Shown: positions 3,328 through 53,038, counted from the first letter of the stretch. The stretch: 64,000 bases of DNA from Candidatus Omnitrophota bacterium (GCA_022709525.1 JAKLIQ010000006.1:66708-130707); one strand, 5' to 3'. Notes: a model not told the origin generated them from the sequence alone. Numbers and translations: made by a program.

Positions 3328-3459
3328 TCTTTTTTAAAAAAGCATAGCGCTTTCCAATACATTCCCCTAGAATCCGACCATTCAGTCTTTCGCCGTTGCC
3401 GGTCCAGTCTCTACCGAAAACCACAGCGTTAAACGGACTTTTTGTTTTATAATCTTCCC

Positions 3460-4308
3460 ATGCTGAAACGGCCTATCCTGATCCTTGCGGCATTCTGTTT
3501 TCTGCTGAGCGGTTGCGCCACTTCCTCGCCCGAACGCAGCGCCAAAGCTTTTACCGTGGCGCAGGAGGCCGGCCTCCAAAAAGAAATGGTCAAGGCTGCT
3601 CCGTTCGTATTGACCGCTTACGCGCGTCTTTCCGCTCCCGGCAAACCGATCCATATCTATATTGAAGGGGACGGTTATGCTTGGGTGACGCGGAACCGGG
3701 TTTCCGGCGATCCGACGCCGCGTCAACCGATGGTGCTTTCGCTTGCCGCGGAGGATCCCGCGCCAAACGTTGTTTATCTCGCTAGGCCGTGCCAGTACAC
3801 GCCGCAGGAGCAAAATCCCAAGTGCGAGGAGTTTTATTGGACCGGCGGCCGTTTTTCCGAAGAAGTCGTGCGGTCGATGGATGAAGCGGTTTCTTACTTT
3901 ATCGGAAAAACCGGCGCGCCGGGCGCCGACCTGATCGGATATTCCGGCGGCGCGGCGGTGGCCGTGCTTGTGGCAGTGCGACGCACGGATATTTTGAGCT
4001 TCAGGACCATCGCGGGCAATCTCAACCCGGAACTCGTGAATCGCTATCACGAAGTAAGCCCTCTCGACGGCTCTTTGGACCCGATGGATGCCGCCGACAA
4101 GGTCGCTTCTATCCCGCAGCTTCATTTTATCGGCGGGGATGATGAATTAATTCCGCTTGAAACAGTAAGTTCATTCCTGAAAAAAATGGGCGACGAGCGG
4201 TGTTTCCGGATGAAAACGATATCTGACGCCTCTCATGAAAACGGCTGGATGGAGGCCTGGCCCGAATTGCTTCGCGAACCTGTTGTTTGCAGGAAAGAGG
4301 CAGTCTAA
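3460..4308 (+). CDS. lipoprotein, alpha/beta-hydrolase-like (GYSGG nucleophile elbow)
   Basis: MLKRPILILAAFCFLLSGC lipobox signal from the ATG at 3460 (the track's start at 3442 is a TTG). GxSxG-like GYSGG motif and a C-terminal His. Confidence 0.5.
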   Translation: MLKRPILILAAFCFLLSGCATSSPERSAKAFTVAQEAGLQKEMVKAAPFVLTAYARLSAPGKPIHIYIEGDGYAWVTRNRVSGDPTPRQPMVLSLAAEDPAPNVVYLARPCQYTPQEQNPKCEEFYWTGGRFSEEVVRSMDEAVSYFIGKTGAPGADLIGYSGGAAVAVLVAVRRTDILSFRTIAGNLNPELVNRYHEVSPLDGSLDPMDAADKVASIPQLHFIGGDDELIPLETVSSFLKKMGDERCFRMKTISDASHENGWMEAWPELLREPVVCRKEAV

Positions 4309-7177: not shown

Positions 7178-9208
7178 ATGGAATTATTCTTTTATGCGCA
7201 GGTCCTTCTCCATTGTTTGGGGGGAGGCGCGGGTTTTTTATTTGATCAACAGAGCGAGAGCGCAAACCGCGCGACACATTTTCTAGCTGTAGCGGCCGGG
7301 GCGGCAGGCGTTGTTTTCTCTCTAGCTATTCTTCTCACGGGAAAGCCCTGGATTTTTGAATTGCAGGGGAGTCTGCCTGTTGGCCCTTTACGGTTCGTGA
7401 TTGACCCTTTTTCCGCTTTTTTTGTCCTTACCATATCCTTTCTGTCTTTCGCGGCCTCCCTTTTCGCGGTCGGTTATACCCGGGAATATCAAAGAAAGAA
7501 AAACATCGCCCTTTTAGGATTTTTCTATCATATTTTCATCCTGGCGATGCTGGCTGTCGTAACGGTGCAGAACGCTTTTTATTTCCTGTTCTTTTGGGAA
7601 CTCATGTCGCTTGCATCCTATTTTCTCGTGGTTTTTGAACACGAGAAGCCCGAGGCCCGCTCCGCCGGCACGCTTTATCTCATTATGACGCATATCGGGA
7701 CCGCTTTTATTGCGGCGGCTTTCCTGCTTCTTTATGTTCATTCGGGATCTTTTTCTTTCGATGCATTCCGGTTCGCCGCCGCGACGCTTTCTCCCGCTGT
7801 CAAAAACGCCGTTTTTTTAGCGGCCCTGATCGGGTTCGGGACCAAGGCGGGCGTGATCCCGCTCCACATCTGGCTGCCCCAAGCCCACCCGCAGGCCCCG
7901 AGCCATGTCTCGGCCCTCATGTCGGGCGTCATGATCAAGACAGCGATCTACGCTTTCTTGAGATTTCTTTTTGGTTTTTTAGGAGAGCCGTTCGCGTGGT
8001 GGGGGCATGTCGTTCTTGCCCTCGCGATTCTTTCGACGCTTCTGGGGATCCTTTACGCTTTAATGGAAAATGATCTGAAGCGTCTGCTTGCTTTTTCAAG
8101 CATTGAAAACATCGGCATTATTCTTCTGGGGATCGGTATGGCGCTTGTTTTTAGGGTCTTCCACCAGCCTTTTAATGGCGGTTTCGCGCTTATGGCGGCC
8201 CTTTTTCATGTGATCAACCATGCGGCGTTCAAAGGCCTTTTGTTTCTTGGGACAGGTTCCGTTCTTCATAGCGCTCATACGCGACAGATAGAAAACCTCG
8301 GAGGACTGATCCGGAAAATGCCATGGACTGCCGTTTGTTTTTTGACCGGCGCTATGGCGATCTCCGCGCTTCCGCCGCTCAACGGTTTTGTCAGCGAATG
8401 GCTGACTTTTATGGCGCTGCTCCTGGGGTTTCACGGCGCGGGCGCGGGCATGCCTTTCTTTTCGCCGGTCCTTGCCTCGCTTCTCGGTCTCGCCGGCGCT
8501 TTGGCGGCTACATGCTTTATCAAAGTTTTCGGCATCAGCTTTTTGGGAAAGCCCCGCTCGGAACACGCTGTTCAAGCCCGGGAAGTAAGCGGGTCGATGA
8601 AGTTAGGTATGGGGATCCTTGCAGTGAGTTGTTTGGGATTATCGCTCGCCGCGCCTCAGGCCTTAAAGATCCTGGCAAAGATCGCCGGGACGCTTGCCGG
8701 TACCGATATTCCGGTCGAGACTGTGACTCAGAGAATATTTTTGATTTCTCCTTTAAATTCCAGCCTATTCTCTCCTTTGGCTGTTGCCCTGGTCCTTTTG
8801 GCTCTTCTGGCGGTGATAATGGCGCTTCCCAGGATTATTTTTGGAAAAAAACTTGTCCGGACCGGCCCCAGCTGGGATTGCGGGATGCCCGCGCTTTCCT
8901 CCCGGATGCAGTATACCGCGACGGGTTTTTCAAAACCGTTGCGCCGGATCTTTTCCTTCCTTTATCAACCGACCCGGCGCGTGGAGTTGGAAGATGAAGG
9001 TCATGAAATGCTCCGGACGGCGCAGCGCTTCGAAGCCAGGATCACGCATCCGGTCGATGAATGGGTCTACCGTCCTTTGGCCGCGCTCGTTTCCGAGCTT
9101 TCTCAAAAAGCAAAACGGATCCAAACGGGCCATATCCAGCTTTATCTGAGTTACATTTTTATCACGCTGATCCTCCTCCTTCTTTTTCTGGGAGGACATT
9201 CCTCATGA
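7178..9208 (+). CDS. NuoL/HyfB/MnhA-type proton-pumping antiporter-like subunit (Ehr/hydrogenase-4-like complex)
   Basis: 676 aa polytopic protein with the Proton_antipo_M signature (GFGTKAGVIPLHIWLPQAHPQAPSHVSALMSGVMIKTAIY). Confidence 0.85.
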   Translation: MELFFYAQVLLHCLGGGAGFLFDQQSESANRATHFLAVAAGAAGVVFSLAILLTGKPWIFELQGSLPVGPLRFVIDPFSAFFVLTISFLSFAASLFAVGYTREYQRKKNIALLGFFYHIFILAMLAVVTVQNAFYFLFFWELMSLASYFLVVFEHEKPEARSAGTLYLIMTHIGTAFIAAAFLLLYVHSGSFSFDAFRFAAATLSPAVKNAVFLAALIGFGTKAGVIPLHIWLPQAHPQAPSHVSALMSGVMIKTAIYAFLRFLFGFLGEPFAWWGHVVLALAILSTLLGILYALMENDLKRLLAFSSIENIGIILLGIGMALVFRVFHQPFNGGFALMAALFHVINHAAFKGLLFLGTGSVLHSAHTRQIENLGGLIRKMPWTAVCFLTGAMAISALPPLNGFVSEWLTFMALLLGFHGAGAGMPFFSPVLASLLGLAGALAATCFIKVFGISFLGKPRSEHAVQAREVSGSMKLGMGILAVSCLGLSLAAPQALKILAKIAGTLAGTDIPVETVTQRIFLISPLNSSLFSPLAVALVLLALLAVIMALPRIIFGKKLVRTGPSWDCGMPALSSRMQYTATGFSKPLRRIFSFLYQPTRRVELEDEGHEMLRTAQRFEARITHPVDEWVYRPLAALVSELSQKAKRIQTGHIQLYLSYIFITLILLLLFLGGHSS

Positions 9209-10155
9209 ACCCGGTCCTTCTCTCGTTCCTTCAGCTTTTATTTTTGATGATTTTGGCGCCGGCCATAAGCTGGTTCATCAAAAAAATGAAGGCGGCTTCC
9301 CAGAATCGCATTGGGCCGAAGCTGGCGCAGGTTTACGCCGATCTCTGGAAGCTTTGCCGCAAGGATATGGTTATCTCAGAGACGGCGTCATGGATCTTTC
9401 ATGCCATGCCGTTCGTTCTTTTTGCGGCGACGCTCGCGGCGGCCTCGATGGTGCCAATCCTGTGGAATCACTCTCTTTTTGGTTTTATGGGAGACGCGAT
9501 CCTTTTTGTTTATCTTCTGGCCCTAGGCCGTTTTTTCATCGCGCTCGCCGCGTTGGATACCGGCACGACTTTCGGGGGGATGGGATCAAGCCGGGAAATG
9601 ACGCTTTCTTCCATCGCCGAACCGGCGCTTTTGCTTTCTTTTTTTGCTTTGGGCTTTCATGCGAGAACCTTATCGTTGGAAGGCATGACGGCACATTTCG
9701 CCAATGCATCCTCCCTTCAAATATTATTCTTCACAAGTCTGGCGTTCGGATCGCTTTTGATCGTGACCATTGCCGAAAGCGGCAGGATCCCCGTGGATAA
9801 CCCCGCCACGCATCTGGAACTGACCATGATCCATGAGGCGATGATCCTGGAATATTCCGGAAGGTATCTCGCCCTGATCGAATGGGGCCATCAGATCAAG
9901 CAGCTGGTTTTCCTGACGCTTTTGGCTGATTTCTTTTTTCCGTGGGGGATCGCAACGACCGGAGGTGCGGCGGCGCTGGGGTTGTCGCTCGTCTTTTATC
10001 TGGCGAAGGTCTTCGGGCTGGCTTTTGTGATCGGATGGATCGAGATCCATTCCGCGAAACTGCGCCTTTTCAGGGCGCCGGATCTTTTGACGGTCGCTTT
10101 TGTCCTGGCGATCCTTTCCCTTTTGGGGCAGTTGATCATCGGGAGGGGCGTGTGA
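9205..10155 (+). CDS. NuoH/HycD/HyfC-type membrane subunit
   Basis: ATGA start/stop overlap with the upstream gene and a GGAGGA RBS. MNPVLLSFLQLLFLMILAPAISWFIKKMKAASQNRIGP matches the N-terminus of the complex-I subunit-1 family. Confidence 0.8.
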   Translation: MNPVLLSFLQLLFLMILAPAISWFIKKMKAASQNRIGPKLAQVYADLWKLCRKDMVISETASWIFHAMPFVLFAATLAAASMVPILWNHSLFGFMGDAILFVYLLALGRFFIALAALDTGTTFGGMGSSREMTLSSIAEPALLLSFFALGFHARTLSLEGMTAHFANASSLQILFFTSLAFGSLLIVTIAESGRIPVDNPATHLELTMIHEAMILEYSGRYLALIEWGHQIKQLVFLTLLADFFFPWGIATTGGAAALGLSLVFYLAKVFGLAFVIGWIEIHSAKLRLFRAPDLLTVAFVLAILSLLGQLIIGRGV

Positions 10156-10811
10156 GCGCGGAATTTATGGCTTCCCTGATCCATTTTCTTGGCATGATGC
10201 TTTTGATCGCTTCTTTCTGGATTCTCGTCTCTTCCCAGATCGGGGCGTGCATTCGCGCGTACGCGACGCATTCTTTCCTACTCGCGCTTATCACCGCGGT
10301 AGTTGCCTGGAGTCAGCACATCGAACATTTGATTATCCCGGCGCTTTTGACCCTTGCGCTGAAAACGATCGTGATCCCGCACGTTTTTTTCCGGATCATC
10401 CGGCGGCTCGGGATCCGCAAAGAAGTGGAAAGTTATATTAATATTCCCTTCTCGCTTCTTTTGGCCGTCTTGCTCGTTTTCATTTCGTTTTATGCGACCG
10501 GGGAAGGGAGATTCCTTAAGCCCGCGGCGTTCGGCGAGTTCATCCCGCTCGCCATTTCGACCGTGTTTTTCGGTATGCTCATGATGACGACGCGAAAAAA
10601 AGCGATCAGCCAAGTTCTCGGCCTGCTTTTGATCGAGAATGGGCTTTTTTTAATGGCGATCACCATGACCTTCGGCATGCCGCTTCTGGTTGAGATGGGG
10701 ATCTTTTTTGACGTTCTCATTGCGGTGATGATTATGGGGCTTTTTGTTTTTAAGATCCGCGATGCTTTTGAGGGCATCGACGCGGACGACATGACGGTTT
10801 TGAAAGGATAA
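10152..10811 (+). CDS. HyfE/NuoK-like small membrane subunit
   Basis: ~219 aa, 6-7 TM, GTG start overlapping the upstream stop (GTGA) with a GGAGG RBS. Its position and size match hydrogenase-4 component E. Confidence 0.6.
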   Translation: MSAEFMASLIHFLGMMLLIASFWILVSSQIGACIRAYATHSFLLALITAVVAWSQHIEHLIIPALLTLALKTIVIPHVFFRIIRRLGIRKEVESYINIPFSLLLAVLLVFISFYATGEGRFLKPAAFGEFIPLAISTVFFGMLMMTTRKKAISQVLGLLLIENGLFLMAITMTFGMPLLVEMGIFFDVLIAVMIMGLFVFKIRDAFEGIDADDMTVLKG

Positions 10812-10812
10812 T

Positions 10813-12372
10813 ATGATGACGATCGACAAGGCGCTTTGGATGCCGCTTATTTTTGCATTCCTTTGCCTGATCCCTTCTCCCAAGCGGATCACCCGCCTAA
10901 CTTTTATCGCCGGCGCCGTTATTTCCGCGATCGGAGCATGGGGCTTTGTGTTTGGGGCTTCCTGGTCACCACGGGTATTCGCGTTCAACGGAAACCTTAT
11001 GATGGATGCGCTGTCCGCGGTTTTTGCGCTTCTCATCACGGGCGTGGGCGTGCTTTCGGCTGTTTATGCCGGCGGGTATCTTTTCAAGGAAGGGGACGGG
11101 AGTATTTCCCCGTTAAGGCTCCGGCGGTATGCCTGTTTTTTCCATCTTTTTCTCTTTACCATGCTTCTGACGGTCTTTTCCAATAACCTCGGGATCATGT
11201 GGATCGCGATTGAAGGAACGACGCTAGCCTCGGCCTTTCTTGTCAATGTCGACGACAAAAAAAGCTCGATCGAGGCGGCATGGAAATATCTGATCCTTTG
11301 CAGCGTCGGGATTTCGCTCGCTCTTTTTGGGATTATCCTGGTCTACTATTCGGCGATCGCCCAGGCCGCATCGGGTGAAAGCGGCCTTTTGTTGAACTGG
11401 ACCTTCCTTTTAAGCAAAGCCAAGCAGCTCGATCCGCAAGTGCTCCGGCTCGCTTTTATTTTTATTCTTGTGGGTTACGGCACCAAAGCCGGCCTCGCGC
11501 CTTTCCATTCCTGGCTGCCGGATGCGCACAGCCAGGCCCCGGCCCCCGTGAGCGCGCTTCTTTCCGGCGTGCTCTTAAGTTGCGCGACGCTTGGGATATT
11601 GAGATTCCATATCCTGACGAAAGCCGCAACCGGTTCCGCGTTCTCCGACACGCTCCTCATTTTTTTTGGCGTACTTTCGGTTGTCGTGGCCACGCCTTTT
11701 ATCCTGGAACAAAAAGATTACAAACGCCTTCTGGCCTATTCGAGCGTCGAACATATGGGGCTTGCGGCGGCCGGGCTCGGCTTCGGCGGGGCTTTGGGAC
11801 TTTACGGGGCGATCCTTCATATCATGAACCACGCTTTTACCAAGTCGCTTCTTTTTTTCAGTTCCGGTCATCTCTATTACCTTTTTCACTCCAAAGAGAT
11901 CGCTGATGTCAAAGGTCTCTTAAGGAAAAACGCCTTTTTAGGGATCATTTTCTTTTTGGCGGCCTTAGCGATCGCCGGGATGCCGCCTTTCAGCATTTTT
12001 GTGAGCGAATTCTTGATCTTAAGCGCCGGGTTCCTTGGCGGAAAATATATTTCATGCGCCGTCCTGCTTCTTTTTCTCGCGTTGATCTTTGTCGGTTTTT
12101 TGAGGCACGCGAGCCGGATGACCTTGGGCGGTCCCAATACCAATCAATCGAAGCAAAGCGGAGATTGGGGCCGTCCAAACTACCATTTTGGAAAAGAAAT
12201 AAAAAGTTTGGGCGGTTCGGAGGAACCTCCAAAAGTTGAACGGAGCCTTTTGATGGACAGCGTGCTTGTCGTCGGCATGATCGTGATCCTCACAATGGGG
12301 TTTTATATTCCGGGACCTCTGAACGCGTTGATCCAGGCGGCCGGCCGCATCGCCGGTGGGACGATCTTATGA
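10813..12372 (+). CDS. NuoM/NuoN/HyfF-type antiporter-like subunit
   Basis: 519 aa; GYGTKAGLAPFHSWLPDAHSQAPAPVSALLSGVLLSCA is the Proton_antipo_M core. Confidence 0.85.
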   Translation: MMTIDKALWMPLIFAFLCLIPSPKRITRLTFIAGAVISAIGAWGFVFGASWSPRVFAFNGNLMMDALSAVFALLITGVGVLSAVYAGGYLFKEGDGSISPLRLRRYACFFHLFLFTMLLTVFSNNLGIMWIAIEGTTLASAFLVNVDDKKSSIEAAWKYLILCSVGISLALFGIILVYYSAIAQAASGESGLLLNWTFLLSKAKQLDPQVLRLAFIFILVGYGTKAGLAPFHSWLPDAHSQAPAPVSALLSGVLLSCATLGILRFHILTKAATGSAFSDTLLIFFGVLSVVVATPFILEQKDYKRLLAYSSVEHMGLAAAGLGFGGALGLYGAILHIMNHAFTKSLLFFSSGHLYYLFHSKEIADVKGLLRKNAFLGIIFFLAALAIAGMPPFSIFVSEFLILSAGFLGGKYISCAVLLLFLALIFVGFLRHASRMTLGGPNTNQSKQSGDWGRPNYHFGKEIKSLGGSEEPPKVERSLLMDSVLVVGMIVILTMGFYIPGPLNALIQAAGRIAGGTIL

Positions 12373-13946
12373 AGACAGCCCTGGAGATCTTAAGGGAAAG
12401 ATTCGGGGATGCGATCCGGAAAGACCTAAAAGGACTGGCGAAGCAGTCCCATATTCTCGTCACGAAAAACGAGATCGTGGAAATAACAATCTTTCTCGTC
12501 CAGAACCTCCGCATGAGGTTTCTCTTTCTTTCCGGTTCCGATACGAGAAAAGAGAACGGCGCCTTCACGCTTCATTACATTTTTTCTTATGCCCAGCAGG
12601 ACGAGTTCCTCGTCGTTGAGACAAGGATCGAGGAAAAAGATCCGTCATTCCTCTCTCTTTCTCCTTTTTTGCCGCAGGCCAACTGGCAAGAGCGGGAGAT
12701 CCAGGATCTTTTGGGCCTGATCCCGAAAGGACATCCGGATCCGAGGCGGCTCGTGCTTCATGAGGATTGGCCGGAAGGGCTTTTCCCGCTGCGAAAGGAT
12801 TTTAAGTTTCAGGCAAAGATCCCGAGGCAAAAAGGTGAATATGCTTTTGAGCGCGTGGAAGGCGAAGGGATCTTTGAGATCCCCGTAGGCCCTGTTCACG
12901 CCGGGATCATTGAACCCGGCCATTTCCGTTTCTCGGCCGCAGGAGAAAGCATCCTTAAACTTGAAATTCGTCATTTCTACACGCATAAAGGCACCGAAAA
13001 ATCAGGGGAAGGAAGATCCCCGGCGCATCTTCTCTGCTTGGCAGAGCGGATCTCCGGAGACAACTCCCTGGCCCATGTGGTCGCATGTGCCCAGGCCCTT
13101 GAGACGCTCGCGCAGATCGACGTCCCGCCGCGCGCCCAGTTCCTTCGGGTTGTTTTTCTTGAATTGGAGCGTCTTCATAATCATATGAGCGATATCGCCG
13201 GGATCTCCCTGGATGTCGGTTTCAGCTTTGGGGCAAGCCAATTGATGCGTGTGAAAGAAACCCTTTTGAGACTTAATGAACAAGTGGCCGGGACGCGTCT
13301 CTTGCGGTCGGCGGTTCCCTTGGGCGGTGTCCGCGCGGATATCTCTGAGGCCAGAAAACAATGGCTCATGGAACAGATAAAAAAGATCAAAGAAGATTTT
13401 GAAAAAACAATTCAGATCCTCTGGCAAGTCGACTCGTTGATGGACCGGATTGAAACGACGGGAATTCTCAAAAAAGAGATCGCCGAGACCTTGGGCGCGG
13501 TCGGCCCGGCAGCCAGAGCATCCGGCATTGACCGTGATCTTCGCCGCGATCACCCTTATGGCGCCTATAAAGACCTTTTTTTCATGATCCCTGTTTTCAG
13601 CGACGGCGATGTTGAAAGCCGCATGAAAGTGAAGGTCCAGGAGATCTATCAATCCTTCAAACTTATTTATGATGCCCTTCGTGCGATGCCTCAAGGTTCT
13701 TTGCGCGGCGAGATTAAGCCGCTTATACCGTCTCAAAGCGCTTTGGGCTATGTGGAATCACCGCGCGGCGAGTGTTTCCACTGGATCTCCACGGACGGCC
13801 ACGGAAAGATCTCCCGCTGGAAAGTGCAGTCGCCTTCTTTCGCGAATTGGCCCCTGATCGAATATGCGGTGTTGGAAAATATCGTTCCGGATTTTCCTCT
13901 CATCAATAAAAGTCTTAATTTGTCCTATTCAGGGAACGACCGGTGA
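12369..13946 (+). CDS. NuoC-NuoD fused, [NiFe]-hydrogenase large-subunit homologue lacking all four Ni-Fe cysteines (Ehr-type)
   Basis: N-terminal 30-kDa (NuoC) domain plus a NuoD/HycE-like domain. The RxCGxCxxxH motif reads ERISGDNSLAH, and the C-terminal DPCxxCxxR motif reads NLSYSGNDR at the very C-terminus. Confidence 0.85.
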   Translation: MKTALEILRERFGDAIRKDLKGLAKQSHILVTKNEIVEITIFLVQNLRMRFLFLSGSDTRKENGAFTLHYIFSYAQQDEFLVVETRIEEKDPSFLSLSPFLPQANWQEREIQDLLGLIPKGHPDPRRLVLHEDWPEGLFPLRKDFKFQAKIPRQKGEYAFERVEGEGIFEIPVGPVHAGIIEPGHFRFSAAGESILKLEIRHFYTHKGTEKSGEGRSPAHLLCLAERISGDNSLAHVVACAQALETLAQIDVPPRAQFLRVVFLELERLHNHMSDIAGISLDVGFSFGASQLMRVKETLLRLNEQVAGTRLLRSAVPLGGVRADISEARKQWLMEQIKKIKEDFEKTIQILWQVDSLMDRIETTGILKKEIAETLGAVGPAARASGIDRDLRRDHPYGAYKDLFFMIPVFSDGDVESRMKVKVQEIYQSFKLIYDALRAMPQGSLRGEIKPLIPSQSALGYVESPRGECFHWISTDGHGKISRWKVQSPSFANWPLIEYAVLENIVPDFPLINKSLNLSYSGNDR

Positions 13947-13966
13947 AGAAGAAGGAGAAATAAAAC

Positions 13967-14866
13967 GTGTTCAGGATTCTTAAGAAAAATATCGCGGTAG
14001 GGAAGGCGACGCTTCCGCCGGCGTTTGTGAATGCCTCAGCCCCGGAAGGCTCTCTCGGCGCGCCTGAGATCGATTTTCTCAAATGCACCGGTTGCGGAAA
14101 ATGCGTTGCCGCCTGTCCTACCAGTGCTTTGACCGCGGAAGATCGCGAGGCCGAAGGCAAGCGTCTGCTCCATCTTTCCTACGGAAATTGTATTTTCTGC
14201 GGCCTTTGCGCTCCCGCGTGTCCGCATCAGGCGATCTCCTTTAAAGGAAAATTCGATCTTGCCGCCAAAACAAAAAAAGAATTAGTCCGGAAACTTTCTT
14301 TTTCTTTGTCGGGTTGCCGGAAGGATGCCGCATTCGTGACTTCTAGCGCCTTACCCGTAAAAAAGATGGCGGAAGAAGCGCCGGGATTTGCGCAAGGCGA
14401 TTTCGCGGACAGGATCCCGATGAGGGAAATAGGATCGAAATTAAAAGAAAAGATCAAACGCCTTTTTGGCCGGTCACTTCATATCCGCGAAGTGGACGCG
14501 GGTTCCTGCAACGGCTGCGAGGTGGAGATCGTGAATCTTTCCAACCCCGTTTATGACGCGGAACGGTTCGGCATTCATTTCGTGGCTTCCCCCAGACATG
14601 CGGATATGCTTCTTGTGACGGGGCCCGTAACGCGCCAGATGGAACTTGCGCTCGTGAAAACCTACGCCGCGGCGCCTTCGCCCAAGTTGGTCGTCGCCTG
14701 CGGGAGCTGCGCCGTTAGCGGCGGGATCTTTGAAGGGAATTATGCGACCGTTGGCGGCGTGGACCGGGTCGTCCCCGTCGATATTTATATTCCCGGTTGC
14801 CCGCCTCGTCCCGAGGCGATCTTCCAGGGGATCTTCCTCGCCTTGGACAAGTTTCGGGCAAAATAA
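13967..14866 (+). CDS. fusion of 2x[4Fe-4S] ferredoxin (NuoI/HycF-like) and NuoB/HycG-like small subunit
   Basis: N-terminal CTGCGKCVAACP and CIFCGLCAPACP. The C-terminal half has the small-subunit motifs GSCNGCEVE, ACGSCAVSGG and IPGCPPRP. GTG start with an AAGGAG RBS. Confidence 0.8.
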   Translation: MFRILKKNIAVGKATLPPAFVNASAPEGSLGAPEIDFLKCTGCGKCVAACPTSALTAEDREAEGKRLLHLSYGNCIFCGLCAPACPHQAISFKGKFDLAAKTKKELVRKLSFSLSGCRKDAAFVTSSALPVKKMAEEAPGFAQGDFADRIPMREIGSKLKEKIKRLFGRSLHIREVDAGSCNGCEVEIVNLSNPVYDAERFGIHFVASPRHADMLLVTGPVTRQMELALVKTYAAAPSPKLVVACGSCAVSGGIFEGNYATVGGVDRVVPVDIYIPGCPPRPEAIFQGIFLALDKFRAK

Positions 14867-14870
14867 AAGA

Positions 14871-16895
14871 TCAAATAGTTTCTTCGTATTCTTTTCCGGT
14901 CCAAATGATCCTGATCCTTAGAGGACGGACCTCGTCAGGAGGAGTGACCGAGCCCCAGGCCACAGCGATCTCTTCCATCTGGACCTCAGGAGAGAATTTC
15001 TCCGATTTCCCAAGCACTAATTGCTGAGCTTTCAGGTCGAAGGCGACCCGCGCCATCACATAATAGGGGTCGTTCGTGGGCACTGACAGGAGAGTGACGG
15101 GCCGGCCGACCTTTTCGGCTGCCGCGATCACACAAGTAAAGATCTCTTCTTCCTGGGGGTAGGGTTTTTCGAAGGAACCTTCCAGTTGGAGCCCCTTTCC
15201 GACCTTGGAGGTCAGGACGATCACTTCGGTTGTTTCGGGATCGATCTCCGAGAGGACTTTTTCAAGATGGACAAGGTTATGCGGAGACCGCGCGGCAACG
15301 ACGATGCGGTTAGGTTTTAAACAATGGCATGCTTCCGGCGTCAAAAGATCCATTTCGCTGAGGTTAACGCGGTCGATATGCTGGCGCTCGCGATCCGAGC
15401 CTTCTTCTTTATGACGTTTGGCAGTATTGATCTTTTCAGAAACTAAAAAAATGATAAAAAAGGCCAGTGTAAATATGGACCCTGAGATCGTGGCGACCCT
15501 TTTGGTCAAAAGGTTAACGCAAGCGGTCGCGAAGAGAACAAAAAAGATCGTCACAAGCCCCATCGGGATCTCCAGTCCAAAAATCCTGAGGTTCACCGGG
15601 ACTTTCCATTCGCGCGGCGACTTATCCTTGTAGCGCAGCATGAGAACCGCCAAGGATTTAAAGACAAAACTCCAGATCACCCCGAAGGCGTACGCTTCGC
15701 CTAATACGTAAATATTTCCTTGGCACAAAAGGATCGTAAGGGCCTGAAGGCCGACGACCAGATTGATCATTCGGTAGGATGTTCCGAAACGGGGGTGGGG
15801 ATGGCGCAGGGTTTCCGGCAAGATACCGTCTTCGCCTAAGCGATTCAAGACGCCGTTCGAACCCACGATGGACGTGTTGACCGCCCCCGAAAGGATCAAT
15901 GCTCCGACAAATACCACAAAAGCTTGGAACAGGATCTTGACCGGCGTCGGTCCCACAAGGTACATCGCCAATCCGCTGATCAAATTGCCGGAATACTGGC
16001 CCGTCCGGGCAGCATCCGGGATGATCATAACCGCAAAAAAACTGACCAGCGATGTCAAAAGCATGCTGTAGAGAAAAATAATAAACCCCGCCCTTTTCAG
16101 ATTTTTCAGCTTGGGGGCTTCCATTTCGCGGTAAACCTGCGCTAAGGATTCTTCGCCGCTCATGGCCAAAAGGGAGTGTCCGAAAGCGATCATGATCCCG
16201 ATCACGCCGAGCGGCGCTATCTTGTCGCTGAAACCGTGCAGCCATCCGAGGGATTCTCCGGTAAAAACAGGCGCAAGGGGCGGCCAATTGAAACCTTTGA
16301 CCGCCAGTGTAAAAGAACCCCAGGCGATCAGGACCACAGCCATGACCGTAGTGATCCCCATGATCTTTAGCGCTTTTCCGCTCGATTCCGGGATACCTTT
16401 GACATTCTGCCACCAGAAATACAGCGTGATCGCGATCGCAAACAGAACGGAAAAGAACTCGGAAGGAACGCGGAGAGGGACCTCAAAAATAGGCAAAAGC
16501 GTGTTTAAAAGCCCGGCTAGATATTGACCCGCAGAAACGGCGCTGATGGGGCCGGTCAGAACGTAATCGAAGATCAAGGCCGAGACGGAAAGCTTGGCTA
16601 ATGTGCCGCCCATGGCCTCTTTTACTACCCGGTAAACACCACCCCGCACGAACATACTGCAGGATTCGATATAAACGGCGCGGACCGTGTAAGAGAAAAG
16701 CATGACGCCGAGGATGAACCAGGGAGCCGCTTTTCCGATCGCCTGTTCAGCGATGCCGCCGATATAATAAGCCGTGGATGCCAGGTCACAAAGCACGATC
16801 GCAGCGGCACGCCAAAAGCTGATAAAGCTCAGCATGGCGGTTGTGACCAAAATGACGTTCCGCGCTGTTTTTTTTCGTTCGGGGATATTAGGCAC
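14871..16895 (-). CDS. APC-superfamily permease with C-terminal universal-stress-protein (USP)-like domain
   Basis: 674 aa with 12 TM and an APC-like N-terminal region, plus a ~150-aa USP-like C-terminal domain (RIVVAARSPHNLVHLEKVL...VIVLTSKVGKG). GTG start with an AAGGAGG RBS. Confidence 0.7.
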   Translation of the reverse strand: MPNIPERKKTARNVILVTTAMLSFISFWRAAAIVLCDLASTAYYIGGIAEQAIGKAAPWFILGVMLFSYTVRAVYIESCSMFVRGGVYRVVKEAMGGTLAKLSVSALIFDYVLTGPISAVSAGQYLAGLLNTLLPIFEVPLRVPSEFFSVLFAIAITLYFWWQNVKGIPESSGKALKIMGITTVMAVVLIAWGSFTLAVKGFNWPPLAPVFTGESLGWLHGFSDKIAPLGVIGIMIAFGHSLLAMSGEESLAQVYREMEAPKLKNLKRAGFIIFLYSMLLTSLVSFFAVMIIPDAARTGQYSGNLISGLAMYLVGPTPVKILFQAFVVFVGALILSGAVNTSIVGSNGVLNRLGEDGILPETLRHPHPRFGTSYRMINLVVGLQALTILLCQGNIYVLGEAYAFGVIWSFVFKSLAVLMLRYKDKSPREWKVPVNLRIFGLEIPMGLVTIFFVLFATACVNLLTKRVATISGSIFTLAFFIIFLVSEKINTAKRHKEEGSDRERQHIDRVNLSEMDLLTPEACHCLKPNRIVVAARSPHNLVHLEKVLSEIDPETTEVIVLTSKVGKGLQLEGSFEKPYPQEEEIFTCVIAAAEKVGRPVTLLSVPTNDPYYVMARVAFDLKAQQLVLGKSEKFSPEVQMEEIAVAWGSVTPPDEVRPLRIRIIWTGKEYEETI

Positions 16896-17190
16896 GACCG
16901 CACCTCCTTGGAAGGGAGGGGCAGTGGACGAAGAAATAGCAGCTACAAATAAGCTTCATGGTAAAACTCCTCCAATTCGCCTACGGGGTTAGCTGACGGG
17001 CTAAGGTCGAGGATCTGACCTTTCAACTGGCGTTGATTCGCCCCTTGTTGTTCTTGGGTCCCCCGTTCCGCGGCTTGCGGATTCGGCATATTAGTTGGCG
17101 AATATACTCCCTTTTTTCGAAAAATCAAGACCCGGGGCGATCTTAGCAAGGAAGAAGTAATGGCAATTTTTCGAAGGGCCCAAATGAGCT

Positions 17191-20715: not shown

Positions 20716-21262
20716 CGGTCTGACTTCAGTTACCTGAAGAGTCGGACTTTCTCTTTGCCATATCCAAAATTCAAGGACTTAGGCAGCAGGTGTAAAGTCT
20801 CTGCACTTGCCCTCCGCGCCTTTCGGCGCAGGTGCTAGCTCAGGATTGCCCGCCATGAATCTTTGACGGATTTCCCTGACTTAGCCTGCTTGTCACCTCA
20901 ATGTTTCCATTGAGGGCTGCTAACTTTGAGCGTGAAGTTCCCGATGGCAATTGGCACAAAGCATAATACATTTATCCAACTCCTCCTGGACCCGCTTCCA
21001 GCTTCGCGTATAACCTTTACTGGAAATACTAAAGTCCTTTTGAGCCGGATCACGATGATGAAATTCTAAAGCTTCCATACAACGGGCATATCCACATTTC
21101 TGGCATTTGCCTCCTTTATAATCGACGGCCATGAGGCGGACTTTCTTTCGCCTTGCATGAACCGCTCGTATAAGGTATGGCCTGCGATCGCTGTATCGAC
21201 GCTTATCTTTCTTCATCGATTGCTTTGTGCCCCTTGCACTCGTTTGCTTTGCTCACTCGTGC
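20716..21262 (-). mobile_element. group I self-splicing intron (~547 nt) with HNH homing-endonuclease ORF in the P1 loop
   Basis: The 5' exon ends in U and the intron ends in G. The internal guide sequence GCAGCC pairs with the exon end GGCUGU (6 bp including the U.G wobble). P2 is CUCAAUG-GAAA-CAUUGAG. A P-like GGGAAAUCCGUCAA, an R-like GUGCAGAGACUUUACA, an S-like AAAGAGAAAGUCC, and a P9 CUUCAG-GUAA-CUGAAG hairpin precede the terminal G. Confidence 0.75.
20920..21216 (-). CDS. HNH homing endonuclease (intron-encoded)
   Basis: 98 aa with CQKCGY...EFHHRDP...NLCANCH (HNH/zinc-finger motif). Lies entirely inside the intron; its stop codon UAG overlaps the first nucleotide of the IGS. Confidence 0.75.
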   Translation of the reverse strand: MKKDKRRYSDRRPYLIRAVHARRKKVRLMAVDYKGGKCQKCGYARCMEALEFHHRDPAQKDFSISSKGYTRSWKRVQEELDKCIMLCANCHRELHAQS

Positions 21263-21531: not shown

Positions 21532-21915
21532 ATGAACAACTGTAAAAAAATAAAACCTTTGGATTTCATAGGGTCATCGCGGGAAGACTTAAAAAATTTT
21601 CCCAATGAGGTGAAGGAAGATATCGGGTACGCGCTCTTTGAAGCCCAGCAAGGATGTAAACCGGCATGCGCTAAACCTCTTAAGGGATTCGGAGGGGCAG
21701 GCGTTCTCGAGATCCTGGAAGATCATCGGAGCGGAACTTACCGGGCGGTTTATACGGTAAGGTTCGCCGGCGTTATTTATGTTTTACATTGTTTTCAAAA
21801 AAAATCGAAGCACGGCGTCAAAACACCGCAGCAGGATATAGAATTGATCCGGAGAAGGATAAAAGCGGCGGAAGAAGATCATAGAACTTATTACGAGACA
21901 GGCGGTAAGGCATGA
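21532..21915 (+). CDS. type II toxin, RelE/ParE superfamily (HigB/Gp49-like)
   Basis: 127 aa, upstream of and overlapping by 4 nt an HTH antitoxin gene (reverse TA order, as in higBA). The C-terminal YVLHCFQKKSKHGVKTPQQDIELIRRR is typical of this family. Confidence 0.55.
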   Translation: MNNCKKIKPLDFIGSSREDLKNFPNEVKEDIGYALFEAQQGCKPACAKPLKGFGGAGVLEILEDHRSGTYRAVYTVRFAGVIYVLHCFQKKSKHGVKTPQQDIELIRRRIKAAEEDHRTYYETGGKA

Positions 21916-22253
21916 GCGGAAAAGAAAAAATTCAAAGAGGAAGCGGAAATGTTTTTGCGGATATCGGAGCGGTGTATCCGGATCGCGTCCAGGTCCGCGC
22001 GCAAGTCATGTTCCGAATTGCGGAAATCCTCCGCGAACGGGGATTAACGCAAAAACAGACGACCAAGCTTCTCGGGATCCCTCAATCCAAAGTGTCCTGT
22101 CTCATGAACGGAAAGCTCAGCGCGTTCTCTTTGGATTATCTTTTTAAGATCCTGAACGCGCTCGACAGGGATGTGGAGATCGTCATCCATCCGAAACGCC
22201 GGGAAGAAAGAACGGCAGTGACCCAGGTTTGGCTCAGAACCGCTTTTGCTTAG
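21912..22253 (+). CDS. HTH XRE-family antitoxin (HigA-like)
   Basis: 113 aa; LTQKQTTKLLGIPQSKVSCLMNGKLSAFSLDYLFKIL is an XRE/Cro-type helix-turn-helix. Confidence 0.6.
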   Translation: MSGKEKIQRGSGNVFADIGAVYPDRVQVRAQVMFRIAEILRERGLTQKQTTKLLGIPQSKVSCLMNGKLSAFSLDYLFKILNALDRDVEIVIHPKRREERTAVTQVWLRTAFA

Positions 22254-29264: not shown

Positions 29265-31970
29265 ATGAAAAACAAGACGGTCTTTCCGGAAAAAAAATGG
29301 CATAGTTTGGAGACTTCCGAAATCCTGGGTCAGTTAGAGGTTTCTGCGGAACAGGGGCTGAGCACGGAAGAGGTTAAAAAGCGCCAGGAGCTTTACGGGT
29401 TGAATGTTCTGACCCCCAAAAAAGGGAAACCCGCATGGCTTCGTTTCCTACTCCAGTTCCACCAGCCGCTTGTTTATATCCTTTTGGCCGCGGCGCTTGT
29501 CACGTTGGTCCTCAAGGAGTGGGTCGATAGCTCGGTGATCTTCGGCGTGGTGTTGATCAATTCGATCGTGGGGTTCCTTCAGGAATCCAAGGCGATCAAC
29601 GCCCTGGCCGCTCTGGCCCGCTCCATGACCACTCAAGCCACAGTGTTGCGCGACGGCGCTGAAAAAAGCGTCCCGTCAACGGAACTCGTTCCGGGAGACA
29701 TCGTACTCATTCACTCGGGGGATAAAGTCCCCGCGGATATGCGCGTTCTGAAGGTGCGGGAACTTCAGGTCAATGAATCCGCCCTGACGGGAGAATCGGT
29801 CCCGGTCGAAAAAAAGCCGGACGTTCTCGCCGAAGGCGTGGTGCTCGCCGACCGTATGAACATGCTTTACACCTCCGGGCTTGTCACTTACGGGCAAGGA
29901 CGGGCGCTCGTGGTGGCGACCGGCGATTCTACGGAAGTGGGAAGGATCTCGGAGATGATCTCTTCGGCCGATGACCTTGCTACGCCGCTCACAAAAAAGA
30001 TCGCGCATTTCAGTCATTTTCTCCTTTATGTGATCCTCGGAATGGCCGCGCTGACCTTTCTTGTCGGGCTGCTGCGAGGCCAGCCCGCCGTGGAAATGTT
30101 CATGGCGGCTGTGGCACTGGCGGTCGGCGCGATCCCGGAAGGGCTTCCCGCCGCAGTCACGATCACGCTCGCGATCGGTGTGTCGCGTATGGCAAAACGG
30201 CGGGCCATCATCCGCAAGCTTCCGGCCGTCGAAACGCTCGGCAGCACCATGATCATCTGTTCGGACAAAACGGGGACCCTGACCGAAAACCAAATGACGG
30301 TGCAGGAGGTTTTTTCCGGCGGCTTTTTTTATACGGTCATCGGTTCGGGATATCAGCCGAAAGGAGAATTTTTTTCGGAAGGAAAACCGGTGGATCCTTT
30401 GAGGTCCGGGCCGTTAAAGGAATGTCTTACCGCCGGTTTTCTCTGCAATACCGCGCGGCTTGCTGAAAAGAACGGACGTTACGAGATCGAAGGCGACCCT
30501 ACGGAGGGGGCCCTGATCGTTTCGGCCCGGAAGGCCGGGATCGATGAAGCCGCCGTCGGGATTTTAATAAAAAAAATAGACACCGTTCCTTTTGAATCGG
30601 CCTACCAATATATGGCGACACTGCATCAAACCGGCGAAGGGAAAGATCGCTCGGTGTTCATGAAAGGTTCCGTGGAGCGCGTTCTTGACCGTTGCGCGGA
30701 CTCCTTCGACAAGCAAGACGTGCTGGCTAAAGCGGAAGCCATGGCTTCCAAGGGACTGCGGGTACTTGCCTTCGCGAAAAAAGAAATGCCGGCCACGACG
30801 GAAACTATCGGGCACGCGGACCTTCAAGCGATGACCTTTCTCGGGCTTCAGGGCATGATCGATCCTCCGAGGCAGGAAGCCATCACGGCCGTTCGCAGCT
30901 GCTACGCGGCGGGCATGCAGGTCAAGATGATCACGGGTGATCATGTGTTAACGGCCGCAGCAATCGCCAAACAACTCGGCCTTCGCTCTGCGGGGGATGA
31001 CGCCTCTTTAGGACTCGCGGCCTTTTCCGGGAAACAACTCGAAGATCTAAACGATGAAGCGTTCACCCGCGCTGCGGCGGGCGGTTCGGTGTTCGCGCGC
31101 GTCACGCCGGAACAAAAACTGAGACTCGTCAAAACGCTCCAATCCCTCGGGAATATTGTGGCGATGACGGGAGACGGGGTCAATGACGCCCCGGCGCTCA
31201 AACAAGCCAACATCGGGATCGCGATGGGGATCACCGGTACGGAGGTGGCCAAAGAAGCGGCCGATATGGTCCTGACGGATGATAATTTCGCGTCGATCGA
31301 GGCCGCCGTCGAAGAAGGACGCTGTGTTTTCGACAATCTGAAAAAATTCATCGTTTGGTCCCTGCCAACCAACCTGGGAGAAGGCCTCTCGATCCTCCTG
31401 GCGATCTTCCTCGGGACGGAGCTTCCGATCCTTCCGGTCCAGATCCTCTGGGTGAACATGACGACCGCCATTTTTCTGGGCATGATGCTTGCTTTCGAGC
31501 CCAAGGAGCCGGACATTATGCGAAAACCCCCGCAAAACCCTAAATTGCCGATCATGACAGGAGACGTTGTGATCCGGACGCTTTATGTCGGACTGTTGCT
31601 TGTGGGCGGCGTTTTCGGCCTTTTTAAATACGCGTTAGCGCAAGGCGCTTCGCTCGCGGAAGCCAGGACCGTCGCGACCACGATGCTTGTTATGGGGGAA
31701 TTTTTCTATCTTTTTAACTGCCGGTCCCTGACGCGTTCGATGTTCTCGATCGGGGTTTTTTCCAACCCCTGGATCTGGATCGGCTGCGCGCTCATGATCG
31801 CTACCCAGTTACTTTTCATCCATGCGCCCTTTATGAACCAAATGTTCCATAGCGCGCCCATGCCGCTGATCGAATGGGAAGAGATCCTGGGCGTGTGTCT
31901 TTTGATCTCCGTTGTGGTGGGGGCCGAAAAATATATACGATTCGGACGGAAAGCTTCCGCCCGGAAATGA
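29265..31970 (+). CDS. P-type cation-transporting ATPase (P2-type, Ca2+-ATPase-like)
   Basis: ICSDKTGTLT phosphorylation site, TGDGVNDAPALK, and an N-terminal cation_ATPase_N domain; 901 aa. Confidence 0.9.
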   Translation: MKNKTVFPEKKWHSLETSEILGQLEVSAEQGLSTEEVKKRQELYGLNVLTPKKGKPAWLRFLLQFHQPLVYILLAAALVTLVLKEWVDSSVIFGVVLINSIVGFLQESKAINALAALARSMTTQATVLRDGAEKSVPSTELVPGDIVLIHSGDKVPADMRVLKVRELQVNESALTGESVPVEKKPDVLAEGVVLADRMNMLYTSGLVTYGQGRALVVATGDSTEVGRISEMISSADDLATPLTKKIAHFSHFLLYVILGMAALTFLVGLLRGQPAVEMFMAAVALAVGAIPEGLPAAVTITLAIGVSRMAKRRAIIRKLPAVETLGSTMIICSDKTGTLTENQMTVQEVFSGGFFYTVIGSGYQPKGEFFSEGKPVDPLRSGPLKECLTAGFLCNTARLAEKNGRYEIEGDPTEGALIVSARKAGIDEAAVGILIKKIDTVPFESAYQYMATLHQTGEGKDRSVFMKGSVERVLDRCADSFDKQDVLAKAEAMASKGLRVLAFAKKEMPATTETIGHADLQAMTFLGLQGMIDPPRQEAITAVRSCYAAGMQVKMITGDHVLTAAAIAKQLGLRSAGDDASLGLAAFSGKQLEDLNDEAFTRAAAGGSVFARVTPEQKLRLVKTLQSLGNIVAMTGDGVNDAPALKQANIGIAMGITGTEVAKEAADMVLTDDNFASIEAAVEEGRCVFDNLKKFIVWSLPTNLGEGLSILLAIFLGTELPILPVQILWVNMTTAIFLGMMLAFEPKEPDIMRKPPQNPKLPIMTGDVVIRTLYVGLLLVGGVFGLFKYALAQGASLAEARTVATTMLVMGEFFYLFNCRSLTRSMFSIGVFSNPWIWIGCALMIATQLLFIHAPFMNQMFHSAPMPLIEWEEILGVCLLISVVVGAEKYIRFGRKASARK

Positions 31971-32019
31971 ACGCGAAGGCGTGATATCGCCTTAATTTTA
32001 AAAAAACGCGGAATAAAAT

Positions 32020-33510: not shown

Positions 33511-33587
33511 GCGAAAAAGAACCGATCTTGCCGGGGTTTTTATTTTAAGAAGAATTTTTTAAGAAAGATTTTTTGAGGAATATTTCT

Positions 33588-36379: not shown

Positions 36380-36392
36380 TGAAGGAAAGACG

Positions 36393-44021: not shown

Positions 44022-44118
44022 GGCCCTTTTACCGCTTCCGGCCTCAGAAAAACCGCTCTATCTTGATCTGGGGATGCCGATACTAAGAACCGCAATCATT
44101 TGAAGGACAGGAGGTTCG

Positions 44119-44502
44119 ATGAAAAAAAAGATCCTCGTAATCGATGATGATCCCGCGGCGTCCCAGCTGATCGCGGAATTACTCCAAGCACAGGGCCACG
44201 AGGCCGTCGCGTCTTTTAATTTTGAGGACGCCCTCCGCCGTGCCCAGCAAGGGGCGCCCGATCTTGTCGTGGTCGACGCCGTGATGCCCGAGATCTCCGG
44301 GTTCGAAGCCTGCCGCAAGCTCAAAAAAATGTTCGAAACGCGCCCACCCCTTGTGATCATGATGACCGCTAAATTCAGCGCGTTCGATCCCATTCTGGCC
44401 CGCGAAATGGGCGCCGATGATTTTGTGGTCAAAACAGGGGATATGTCCTTTGTGGTCAAGGCGGTGCGGGATATCTTTCCAAAAGAAGGGCTGTCTTCTT
44501 GA
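44119..44502 (+). CDS. single-domain response regulator (CheY-like receiver)
   Basis: ILVIDDDP acidic pocket, phospho-acceptor D in LVVVDAVMP, T in MMTAK, and the conserved K. Confidence 0.85.
   Translation: MKKKILVIDDDPAASQLIAELLQAQGHEAVASFNFEDALRRAQQGAPDLVVVDAVMPEISGFEACRKLKKMFETRPPLVIMMTAKFSAFDPILAREMGADDFVVKTGDMSFVVKAVRDIFPKEGLSS

Positions 44503-51303: not shown

Positions 51304-53038
<1,735 letters not shown>

Follow-up and report, generated by a model that had tools for sequence, protein, structure and literature searches.

Does an operon built like that of a group 4 membrane-bound hydrogenase encode a hydrogenase, a complex I or something else? The question is raised by six genes at positions 7178-14866 of a 64,000-nt stretch of DNA from a Candidatus Omnitrophota bacterium (GCA_022709525.1, JAKLIQ010000006.1:66708-130707), the whole of which is called the window hereafter. 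A first-pass annotation made from the sequence alone had ascribed these genes to an Ehr-type (energy-converting hydrogenase-related) complex, on the grounds that the four Ni-Fe cysteines of the large subunit are all replaced. Our analysis leaves us highly confident that the operon encodes an Ehr-type complex, descended from a Hyf/Hyc-like group 4 ancestor, that does not bind Ni-Fe and neither makes nor uses H2. It is a further member of a very widespread and well-documented family, described since 2005/2013 and taken up in many genome papers thereafter; the naming of Ehr in Geobacter is said to go back to Coppi in 2005, and the treatment of the family to Marreiros et al. in 2013.

A hydrogenase-like large subunit without a Ni-Fe site

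The large subunit, EhrL, and the segments on which its identity turns are the following.

12369-13946, + strand: ehrL, fusion of a NuoC-like and a HycE/NuoD-like part, 525 amino acids (aa), without a [NiFe] site (HycE homology, Pfam)
13044-13076, + strand: former N-terminal Ni-Fe motif, E226-R-I-S229-G230-D231-N232-S-L-A-H236, pairing with HycE DRVCGICGFAH
13917-13946, + strand: former C-terminal Ni-Fe motif, N517-L-S519-Y-S-G522-N-D-R525, followed by the stop codon, pairing with HycE DPCYSCTDR
12894-12914, + strand: beta1-beta2 loop, residues 176-182, VHAGIIE (alignment to Nqo4)

EhrL carries the Pfam domains Complex1_30kDa (residues 30-149), NiFeSe_Hases (208-273) and Complex1_49kDa (282-448). 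Its best relative of solved structure is E. coli HycE (7z0s_E; E=3.3e-90, 34% identity), followed more weakly by MbhL (1e-51) and by NuoD/Nqo4 (about 1e-41 or weaker). An AlphaFold 2 (AF2) model built from 30 family members, used for confirmation of the fold only, reached a mean predicted local distance difference test score (pLDDT) of 90.8 and a predicted template modelling score of 0.92, and matched 7z0s_E in Foldseek with a template modelling score of 0.94 and a root-mean-square deviation of 2.3 Å. The scaffold of EhrL is thus predicted to be intact, with only the metal site gone.

In the alignment with HycE, which has no gaps around either motif, all four [NiFe] ligand positions are occupied by other residues, that is Ser229, Asn232, Ser519 and Gly522, so that the first-pass reading of the two motifs as RISGDNSLAH and NLSYSGNDR holds. 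Shifted or alternative cysteines, which that annotation had proposed to look for, can be discarded: the HMMER alignments to both HycE and MbhL are gapless at the two motifs, and no Cys lies nearby. Neither the L1 (RxCGxCxxxH) nor the L2 (DPCxxCxxR) cysteine motif of group 4 hydrogenases is present. Moreover, EhrL ends at Arg525, which aligns with the last residue of mature HycE, whereas HycE continues for 32 residues; that is, EhrL has no C-terminal maturation extension, while HycE-type representatives have tails of 12-33 aa. What has been kept is the hydrogenase-type Glu of the GPxHxxxxEP beta1-beta2 loop (VGPVHAGIIEPGHFRF, Glu182), the loop reading IIEPGHFRF in the hydrogenase manner. This loop is also the sole segment of the EhrL model with a pLDDT below 50; the equivalent loop of complex I is a mobile coupling element.

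No hyp or hycI gene adjoins the operon or was found elsewhere in the 64-kb window, nor were any found in the annotated flanks of four related loci (L001-L004; L numbers denote related loci). Tied maturation genes, which the first-pass annotation would have counted against itself, are thus absent from the DNA covered, which is the window and these flanks. Cys-bearing sister operons likewise have no neighbouring hyp genes, and therefore hyp adjacency is not diagnostic.

It could be argued that EhrL is a genuine but unusual [NiFe] hydrogenase drawing its metal ligands from other positions, since its fold matches that of HycE, Glu182 and the Fe-S wire are kept, and homologues go by the database name 'Ni,Fe-hydrogenase III large subunit'. 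The gapless alignment at both motifs, with no alternative Cys close by, the missing maturation peptide, the absence of hyp/hycI in the window and the four annotated loci, and the fixation of the substitutions across a wide range of phyla make the chance of this negligible; the sequence essentially refutes it.

The replaced pocket is conserved

The motifs ER[IV]SGDNSxAH and [NS]LSYSGND[RM] are near-invariant, and the same substitutions are found in all 120 of the closest homologues, which come from two domains of life. About 58 of these are clusters at 60-100% identity, the source-named ones all being Omnitrophota, and about 60 are clusters at 50-54% identity, whose sources, where named, are Methanoperedens or ANME-2 archaea. 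It follows that the loss of the motifs is not a matter of chance or of sequencing error. Among 30 family members at 35-61% identity, G230, D231, S519, Y520, G522, D524, E182, H177, H185 and N513-K514-S515 do not vary, and S229 is conserved to at least 90%. Asp231 is a gain, the hydrogenases carrying Ile, Val or Ala at this position.

A broader sample was obtained by exhaustive search and clustering at 50% identity, which left 132 scorable full-length representatives. No Cys occurs at the four ligand positions in 88 of them, whereas 34 have all four; G230-D231 together with at most one ligand-position Cys is found in 70. Loci from many phyla, bacterial as well as archaeal, conform to a looser signature, [S/A]-G-D ... 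S-Y-[S/A]-G-x-D. The replacement of the Ni-Fe motifs is not decay, and the pocket appears to be under purifying selection.

A second Ehr type is present in Omnitrophota and Saganbacteria (L042, L044, L071, L074, L081), with Gly or Pro in place of Glu182 (IIGPGHFRF) and an EhrS consisting of the NuoB-like part only. Because of these loci, the supposed proton-relay Glu is not universal in Ehr.

EhrL and complex I

At the positions of the two quinone ligands of Thermus thermophilus Nqo4, His38 and Tyr87, EhrL has Ile181 and Gly230. Against the NuoD equivalog NF004739, EhrL scored 223.8 bits (cutoff 360), and against TIGR01962 191.9 bits (cutoff 459). Identity with bona fide NuoD, the placement that would have spoken against the first-pass reading, is ruled out by these curated cutoffs and by the missing quinone ligands. 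The EhrL pocket matches neither a hydrogenase site nor the canonical quinone site of complex I. That annotation had also presented Ehr as a 'missing link' to complex I; this is an idea from the literature, and it is not borne out here, as the quinone-site residues are hydrogenase-type and not intermediate.

With complex I the window operon shares its modules, fold, N2-type cluster ligands and antiporter-like subunits with a Glu in transmembrane helix 5 (TM5), a Lys in TM7, a His in TM11 and a Glu in TM12; it differs in lacking the quinone ligands, the N-module, NuoA and NuoJ, and in an EhrL sequence much closer to HycE than to NuoD. To read the operon as the quinone module of a respiratory complex I or NDH-1-like enzyme, with a true NuoCD, one could invoke the Pfam matches to Complex1_49kDa and Complex1_30kDa and the NCBI name 'NADH-quinone oxidoreductase subunit C'. 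The sub-cutoff NuoD score, the stronger match to HycE (3e-90, versus 4e-41 for NuoD), the two substituted ligands, the absence of NuoA, NuoJ and NuoEFG from both the operon and the 64-kb window (Pfam/NCBIfam) and the Hyf gene order render this very improbable, and on the features tested it is refuted.

An apparently self-contained operon

The other five genes of the operon are as follows.

7178-9208, + strand: ehrA, HyfB/NuoL-like antiporter-type membrane subunit, 676 aa (Pfam Proton_antipo_M, 1.8e-56)
9205-10155, + strand: ehrB, NuoH/HycD-like membrane subunit, 316 aa (Pfam NADHdh, 6.1e-39)
10158-10811, + strand: ehrC, HyfE-like membrane subunit with a NuoK-like C-terminal part, 217 aa (NCBIfam/Pfam)
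10813-12372, + strand: ehrD, HyfF/NuoM-like antiporter-type membrane subunit, 519 aa (Pfam Proton_antipo_M, 2.9e-55)
13967-14866, + strand: ehrS, fusion of a HycF/NuoI-like ferredoxin domain with two [4Fe-4S] clusters and a HycG/NuoB-like small subunit (Pfam Fer4_7, Oxidored_q6)

All six genes of 7178-14866 lie on the + strand in the order EhrA-B-C-D-L-S with intact frames, neighbouring genes being separated by at most 20 bases or overlapping by 4; the order is common to most related loci that hold a whole operon. The hyf/hyc-like architecture described earlier, with NuoL-, NuoH-, HyfE- and NuoM/N-like subunits, a NuoCD-type large subunit and a ferredoxin plus small subunit, agrees with the Pfam and NCBIfam matches. 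EhrA scored 747.6 bits against the NCBIfam model 'hydrogenase 4 subunit B' (cutoff 667). The start of ehrB and the stop of ehrA share 4 nt, and ehrB orthologues have 314-316 aa. EhrC matched 'hydrogenase 4 membrane subunit' at 1.8e-27, which is under the cutoff, and Pfam Oxidored_q2 weakly. A scan of the operon for promoters and terminators gave counts not above those of shuffled controls.

The first-pass statement that NuoEFG- or FdhF-type electron-input genes are lacking in the window stands: in Pfam scans of 38 further window open reading frames (ORFs) of at least 150 aa, a few ORFs of 130-250 aa being outside the scan, no member of the NuoEFG, FdhF, CooS, Hyp or HycI families was found; seven of the 38 gave no Pfam match at all. 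A conserved partner gene (FdhA, NuoEF, CooS, Hyp) was sought among 500 clustered flanking ORFs of related loci, and no redox partner emerged. Spurious antisense ORFs of high G+C were among the most widespread clusters; of the genuine ones, that of an ArsR-like regulator occurred at 10 loci, that of a sensor kinase at 9, that of an ABC ATPase at 6 and that of Usp at 5. Usp genes adjoin the operon in L001, L003/L004, L005, L008, L009 and L082, those at the Omnitrophota loci L003/L004 being additional to the five clustered loci. Judged from these flanks, the Ehr complex appears to be self-contained and, where a HycF-like domain is present, this speaks for a diffusible donor, ferredoxin for instance.

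Iron-sulfur clusters across the family

EhrS comprises a ferredoxin domain (residues 1 to about 120) and a HycG/NuoB-like domain (about 175-299). It scored 146.8 bits against an NCBIfam NuoB subfamily (cutoff 116), and residues 1-119 matched the Fe-S subunit of formate hydrogenlyase. Two sets of cluster ligands can be read from its translation.

14084-14224, + strand: two CxxCxxCxxxCP motifs, C40, C43, C46, C50 and C75, C78, C81, C85, for two ferredoxin-type [4Fe-4S] clusters
14507-14809, + strand: proximal (N2-equivalent) [4Fe-4S] ligands C181-N-G-C184, G-S-C248 and G-C278-P-P (also in the columns of 63 small subunits)

The proximal-cluster ligands said by the first-pass annotation to be retained are therefore C181, C184, C248 and C278. 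In the window EhrS and its Omnitrophota and Methanoperedens relatives, none of the 12 Cys that three [4Fe-4S] clusters require is missing; three clusters are found in the window clade, in Firmicutes and in Methanoperedens, where the ferredoxin is a separate gene. The EhrS of Acidobacteriota and Verrucomicrobiota has ligands for just one of the two ferredoxin clusters, and that of Nitrospirota, Saganbacteria and other Omnitrophota consists of the NuoB-like part alone. The proximal-cluster Cys are lost in loci of the candidate phyla radiation (CPR) type (L041, L045, L055, L065, L068, L075), in Dehalogenimonas (L072) and in Methanosarcina (L078), the replacements being Asp, Thr or Ser at ligand 1, Glu, Ala or Thr at ligand 2 (with Cys kept in some), Gly or Asp at ligand 3 and Asp or Asn at ligand 4. 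These loci still have SGD ... SYSGND in EhrL and retain the A-B-C-D-L-S order, and the ferredoxin domain is absent. A locus from Chloroflexota (L040) has both ferredoxin clusters and is missing the proximal one. The ligand patterns, compared over loci L005-L084, indicate that Fe-S clusters have been lost stepwise across the Ehr family, from three to two, one and none. Since the proximal-cluster Cys are gone in the CPR, Dehalogenimonas and Methanosarcina loci, the conserved pocket is kept even at loci where electrons have no route to it.

Membrane subunits and coupling residues

Charged residues are conserved in all four membrane subunits. At a threshold of at least 90% these are E141, K223, H344, H348, K352 and E407 in EhrA (63 orthologues), E131, E139, E191, R194, D198, E205, E211 and E216 in EhrB (58 orthologues), and K69, R146 and E160 in EhrC (about 55-63 orthologues). 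In EhrD, E134, K225, H340 and E399 are equivalent to E144 (TM5), K234 (TM7), H348 (TM11) and E407 (TM12) of E. coli NuoM, and the TM8 lysine of NuoM, K265, is replaced by Ser. These conserved Glu, Lys and His residues are consistent with ion translocation, which we infer from them.

Family placement and known relatives

A scan of one genome per species found at least 591 stretches that encode an EhrL relative. The best 80 loci include Acidobacteriota, Nitrospirota, Rokubacteria, Bacillota, Verrucomicrobiota, Chloroflexota, CPR/Patescibacteria, Saganbacteria, Thaumarchaeota, Methanomassiliicoccales, Methanosarcinales and further Omnitrophota. In trees built by neighbour-joining only, EhrL lies within a large Cys-less clade with loci of Saganbacteria, Nitrospira, CPR and Nitrosotenuis; these loci are from taxa with published Ehr and are not the exact published sequences. 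With this placement, the proposed Ehr class assignment is upheld. The sister group is a tail-less, Cys-bearing clade (Desulfotomaculum, Peptococcaceae, Thermincola), the HycE-type group 4a being farther away. One Cys-bearing representative from a Planctomycetota metagenome-assembled genome (MAG), P0122, groups beside the archaeal Cys-less clade; we treated this as neighbour-joining noise and did not take it as a reversion. Two further observations on loci of the family are that two Nitrospirota loci (L073, L083) hold two complete Ehr operons in tandem, and that in a Methanomassiliicoccus MAG (L008) a shorter second hydrogenase-like cluster follows the Ehr operon.

Among Cys-containing clades, the Cys-bearing Ehr branch (Desulfotomaculum ruminis Desru_3260-3265 type) stands closest, with 42-49% identity. 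Its six-gene order, its large subunit without a tail and its IIEPGHFRF loop are those of the window, but it reads ERxCGxCxxSH and ELCY[AS]CxDR where the window has SGDN and SYSG. Its proteins may be real hydrogenases, and the branch probably corresponds to group 4f of HydDB. The E. coli formate hydrogenlyase and hydrogenase 4 (HycBCDEFG; HyfA-J; group 4a) share with the window a large subunit of fused NuoC and NuoD parts, the proton-relay Glu of the loop, and HyfB-, HyfC/HycD-, HyfE-, HyfF- and HycF/HycG-like partners. The window differs from them in lacking the four Ni-Fe Cys, the 32-residue peptide processed by HycI, HycB/HyfA, FdhF and HyfD, and in having HycF and HycG fused. MBX/MBS of Pyrococcus furiosus (6u8y) is a sulfur-reducing group 4 descendant that makes no H2 and couples ferredoxin oxidation to ion transport, and its MbsL retains part of the Cys set. 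It is distant from the window complex: MbsL matches at E=2e-29 as opposed to 3e-90 for HycE, the membrane arm is of the Mrp type, and there are many more subunits.

Ehr was first named in Geobacter (GSU0739-45), with a NuoL-like EhrA, a HyfE-like EhrC, EhrL and EhrS (PMC7894505). The family definition states that the Ni-Fe cysteines are mostly missing but are present in Desulfotomaculum ruminis (PMC3569383). Like the window complex, that of Geobacter sulfurreducens (GSU0739-0745) is a stand-alone membrane complex with these subunits and a Cys-less EhrL (PMC7894505, PMC3569383); by comparison with this system, taken here from its published description, the window EhrS is fused to a ferredoxin domain with two [4Fe-4S] clusters and the host is an Omnitrophota MAG. 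Ehr has further been reported in Margulisbacteria, Saganbacteria and Melainabacteria (PMC6349859), in CPR bacteria (PMC7304191), in ammonia-oxidising archaea (PMC10432482), and in comammox Nitrospira as 'close to group 4f' (PMC10284858). All subunits of the Geobacter complex were more abundant in formate-grown cells than under hydrogen-containing conditions (PMC7894505). For the present subfamily in Omnitrophota or Methanoperedens, literature searches brought up no functional study, only genome-based mentions along with the Geobacter proteomics.

A possible mechanism and its alternatives

Taken as a whole, an account in which the window operon encodes a ferredoxin-fed, ion-translocating Ehr complex with a non-proton acceptor seems likely to us. 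EhrL and EhrS would form a cytoplasmic arm on EhrB, as HycE, HycG and HycF do on HycD in formate hydrogenlyase. Because there is no dedicated input subunit, the donor would be reduced ferredoxin or a similar low-potential carrier, which would feed the outer cluster of the fused HycF-like domain. Electrons would then cross the two ferredoxin-type clusters to the proximal [4Fe-4S] cluster, along the 12 Cys ligands seen in EhrS. At the EhrL/EhrS/EhrB interface, a pocket formed by Ser229, Gly230, Asp231, Asn232, Ser519, Tyr520 and Gly522 would reduce an acceptor that is not protons, since EhrL has no metal site. The resulting charge change might pass via the acidic residues of EhrB and via EhrC to EhrD and EhrA, where H+ or Na+ would be moved; the complex could run in reverse too. 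As for the acceptor, a lipophilic molecule such as menaquinone is our tentative first choice, and another small soluble oxidant comes second and is rather unlikely; the absence of any net acceptor ranks third.

Several points weigh against this account. Its donor, acceptor, ion and direction are all inferred. Both complex I quinone ligands are missing (His38 to Ile181, Tyr87 to Gly230), and an Acetobacterium MAG (L018) and Saganbacteria harbour relatives whose Fe-S ligands are intact, both being lineages believed to be quinone-less. Acetobacterium is not known to have quinones; Saganbacteria have been reported without them (PMC6349859). The occurrence of cluster-bearing relatives in such lineages argues against quinone as the general acceptor. 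In addition, the CPR, Dehalogenimonas and Methanosarcina loci have lost the proximal Cys and yet keep the EhrL signature, which implies that electron delivery to the pocket is dispensable in at least some Ehr. Finally, expression of the Methanoperedens homologue was low, at 52-80 reads per kilobase per million mapped reads (RPKM; PMC4683180).

The cluster-free variants give real weight to what we regard as the main alternative, namely that Ehr is a cation or proton transporter similar to the Mrp antiporters on a hydrogenase scaffold, in which the polar Ser/Asp/Asn pocket loads an ion or proton, the clusters sense the ferredoxin redox state or gate transport by it, and there is no net acceptor. 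That at least two independent lineages without small-subunit Cys ligands and ferredoxin domain keep SGD...SYSGND and the A-B-C-D-L-S order would be explained in this way, as would the lack of a conserved donor- or acceptor-related gene beside the operon, the charged residues conserved throughout the membrane arm, and the ion and stress genes nearby (an SDF symporter and a riboswitch-controlled KimA-like permease in the window, Usp at several loci). However, the window and the Omnitrophota/Methanoperedens clade keep the 12 Cys of a full wire, which would be costly for sensing alone; the neighbourhood evidence is weak and variable, and we know of no precedent for a redox-gated Mrp-type antiporter. 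On balance we consider a pure transporter rather unlikely. A related and equally speculative proposal is that the Ser-Gly-Asp ... Ser-Tyr-Ser-Gly-Asn-Asp pocket is a newly evolved site, binding a small molecule, a proton or another ion, and is the working part of Ehr. Ehr would then at bottom be an ion translocator for which redox input is optional, the window variant being fully wired, that is ferredoxin-driven or ferredoxin-gated.

The same machine might also work in reverse, with the membrane potential lifting electrons from a higher-potential donor such as quinol to ferredoxin for biosynthesis. Members of the family are frequent among aerobic or nitrifying lineages that have no obvious source of reduced ferredoxin (Nitrospira, ammonia-oxidising archaea, Acidobacteriota and Rokubacteria; PMC10284858, PMC10432482), and relatives of complex I are reversible in principle. 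The window organism and its nearest relatives, on the other hand, live anaerobically, and their catabolism normally yields reduced ferredoxin (Omnitrophota, Methanoperedens, Methanomassiliicoccales; PMC10066038, PMC4683180), the canonical quinone site is absent, and direction is unreadable from sequence; we hold reverse operation to be improbable. The ferredoxin-fed, ion-translocating complex with a non-proton acceptor is the account that we retain.

Surroundings of the operon in the window

Transport genes neighbour the operon, with an SDF-type dicarboxylate symporter upstream. At its downstream end, a gene on the - strand (14871-16895) for a 674-aa AA_permease_2 protein of the APC type, with a long cytoplasmic C-terminal domain, converges on the operon. 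Directly upstream of this gene lies a cyclic di-AMP riboswitch (RF00379, 83 bits; 16963-17098, - strand), and the pair of riboswitch and KimA-like permease resembles the ydaO/kimA potassium-transporter arrangement. Farther away in the window, the following features were noted.

20723-20944, - strand: group I intron (RF00028, 57.5 bits), beside a 98-aa ORF (20920-21216, - strand) with an HNH-like motif, CANCHRELH
21532-21915 and 21912-22253, + strand: overlapping small ORFs, a putative toxin-antitoxin pair, the second helix-turn-helix-like (from the translations alone)
29265-34550 and 56940-62831, + strand: ion-handling genes, that is a P-type cation ATPase, a Na+/H+ exchanger with TrkA_C, a CDF transporter, and a Cus-like RND efflux operon (OEP, HlyD with a heavy-metal-binding domain, AcrB)
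48840-50468 and 51377-53026, - strand: two GroEL/Cpn60 paralogues of 542 and 549 aa, about 900 bases apart
32-1336, 3382-4308, 36273-38042 and 44058-44510: location of the seven ORFs of 150-589 aa without a Pfam match, one of which, with 589 aa, lies downstream of an Omp85-like gene

No tRNA gene was found in the window by ARAGORN.

The 'Ech hydrogenase' of Methanoperedens and wider implications

The closest relatives of EhrL outside Omnitrophota are the large subunits of Methanoperedens/ANME-2 (50-54% identity), which have the same SGDNS and SYSGND motifs. An 'Ech hydrogenase lacking EchD' figures in metabolic models of Candidatus Methanoperedens, made up of ANME2D_02724 (A), 02723 (B), 02720 (E), 02719 (F) and 02718 (C); the two genes that separate B from E are not listed (PMC4683180). 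At the archaeal locus L001 (4917-12410) the Ehr order is A, B, C, D, L, ferredoxin, S, which matches the order of the ANME2D tags; unlike in the window, the ferredoxin and small subunits of Methanoperedens are separate genes, and the literature treats the complex as a hydrogenase. Going by gene order and the motifs of homologues, and not by the published sequences themselves, the Methanoperedens 'Ech' is probably this Ehr complex. Given its Ehr-like gene order, and given that the Methanoperedens homologues are Cys-less without exception, the published 'Ech' is very likely no hydrogenase. One Methanoperedens species is said to lack genes for functional hydrogenases (PMC13079737), which fits with a non-hydrogenase 'Ech'.

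Another Ehr operon will not surprise specialists, and an uncultured host is a poor experimental entry point; the comparison does offer targets for work on cultured hosts, namely the invariant Asp231 and the pocket signature, the stepwise Fe-S loss, and the self-contained operon without a conserved partner. Ehr genes usually go under the names 'hydrogenase 3/4', 'NADH-quinone oxidoreductase subunit C' or 'Ech', and the use of PF00346 as a complex I marker in Omnitrophota (PMC10066038) would count Ehr too. From this operon, neither H2 production nor a complex I should be ascribed to the window organism, and the same caution applies to the Methanoperedens 'Ech hydrogenase' invoked in ferredoxin re-oxidation. 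The hosts of Ehr include nitrifiers, soil Acidobacteriota, methane oxidisers, CPR bacteria and acetogens. A correct reading matters for metabolic models. If the pocket were indeed the working part of the complex, Ehr would form a functional class of its own, standing between the Mrp antiporters and the redox-driven pumps, and genes now called 'hydrogenase', 'complex I' or 'Ech' would have to be reread in hundreds of genomes, including those of Methanoperedens.

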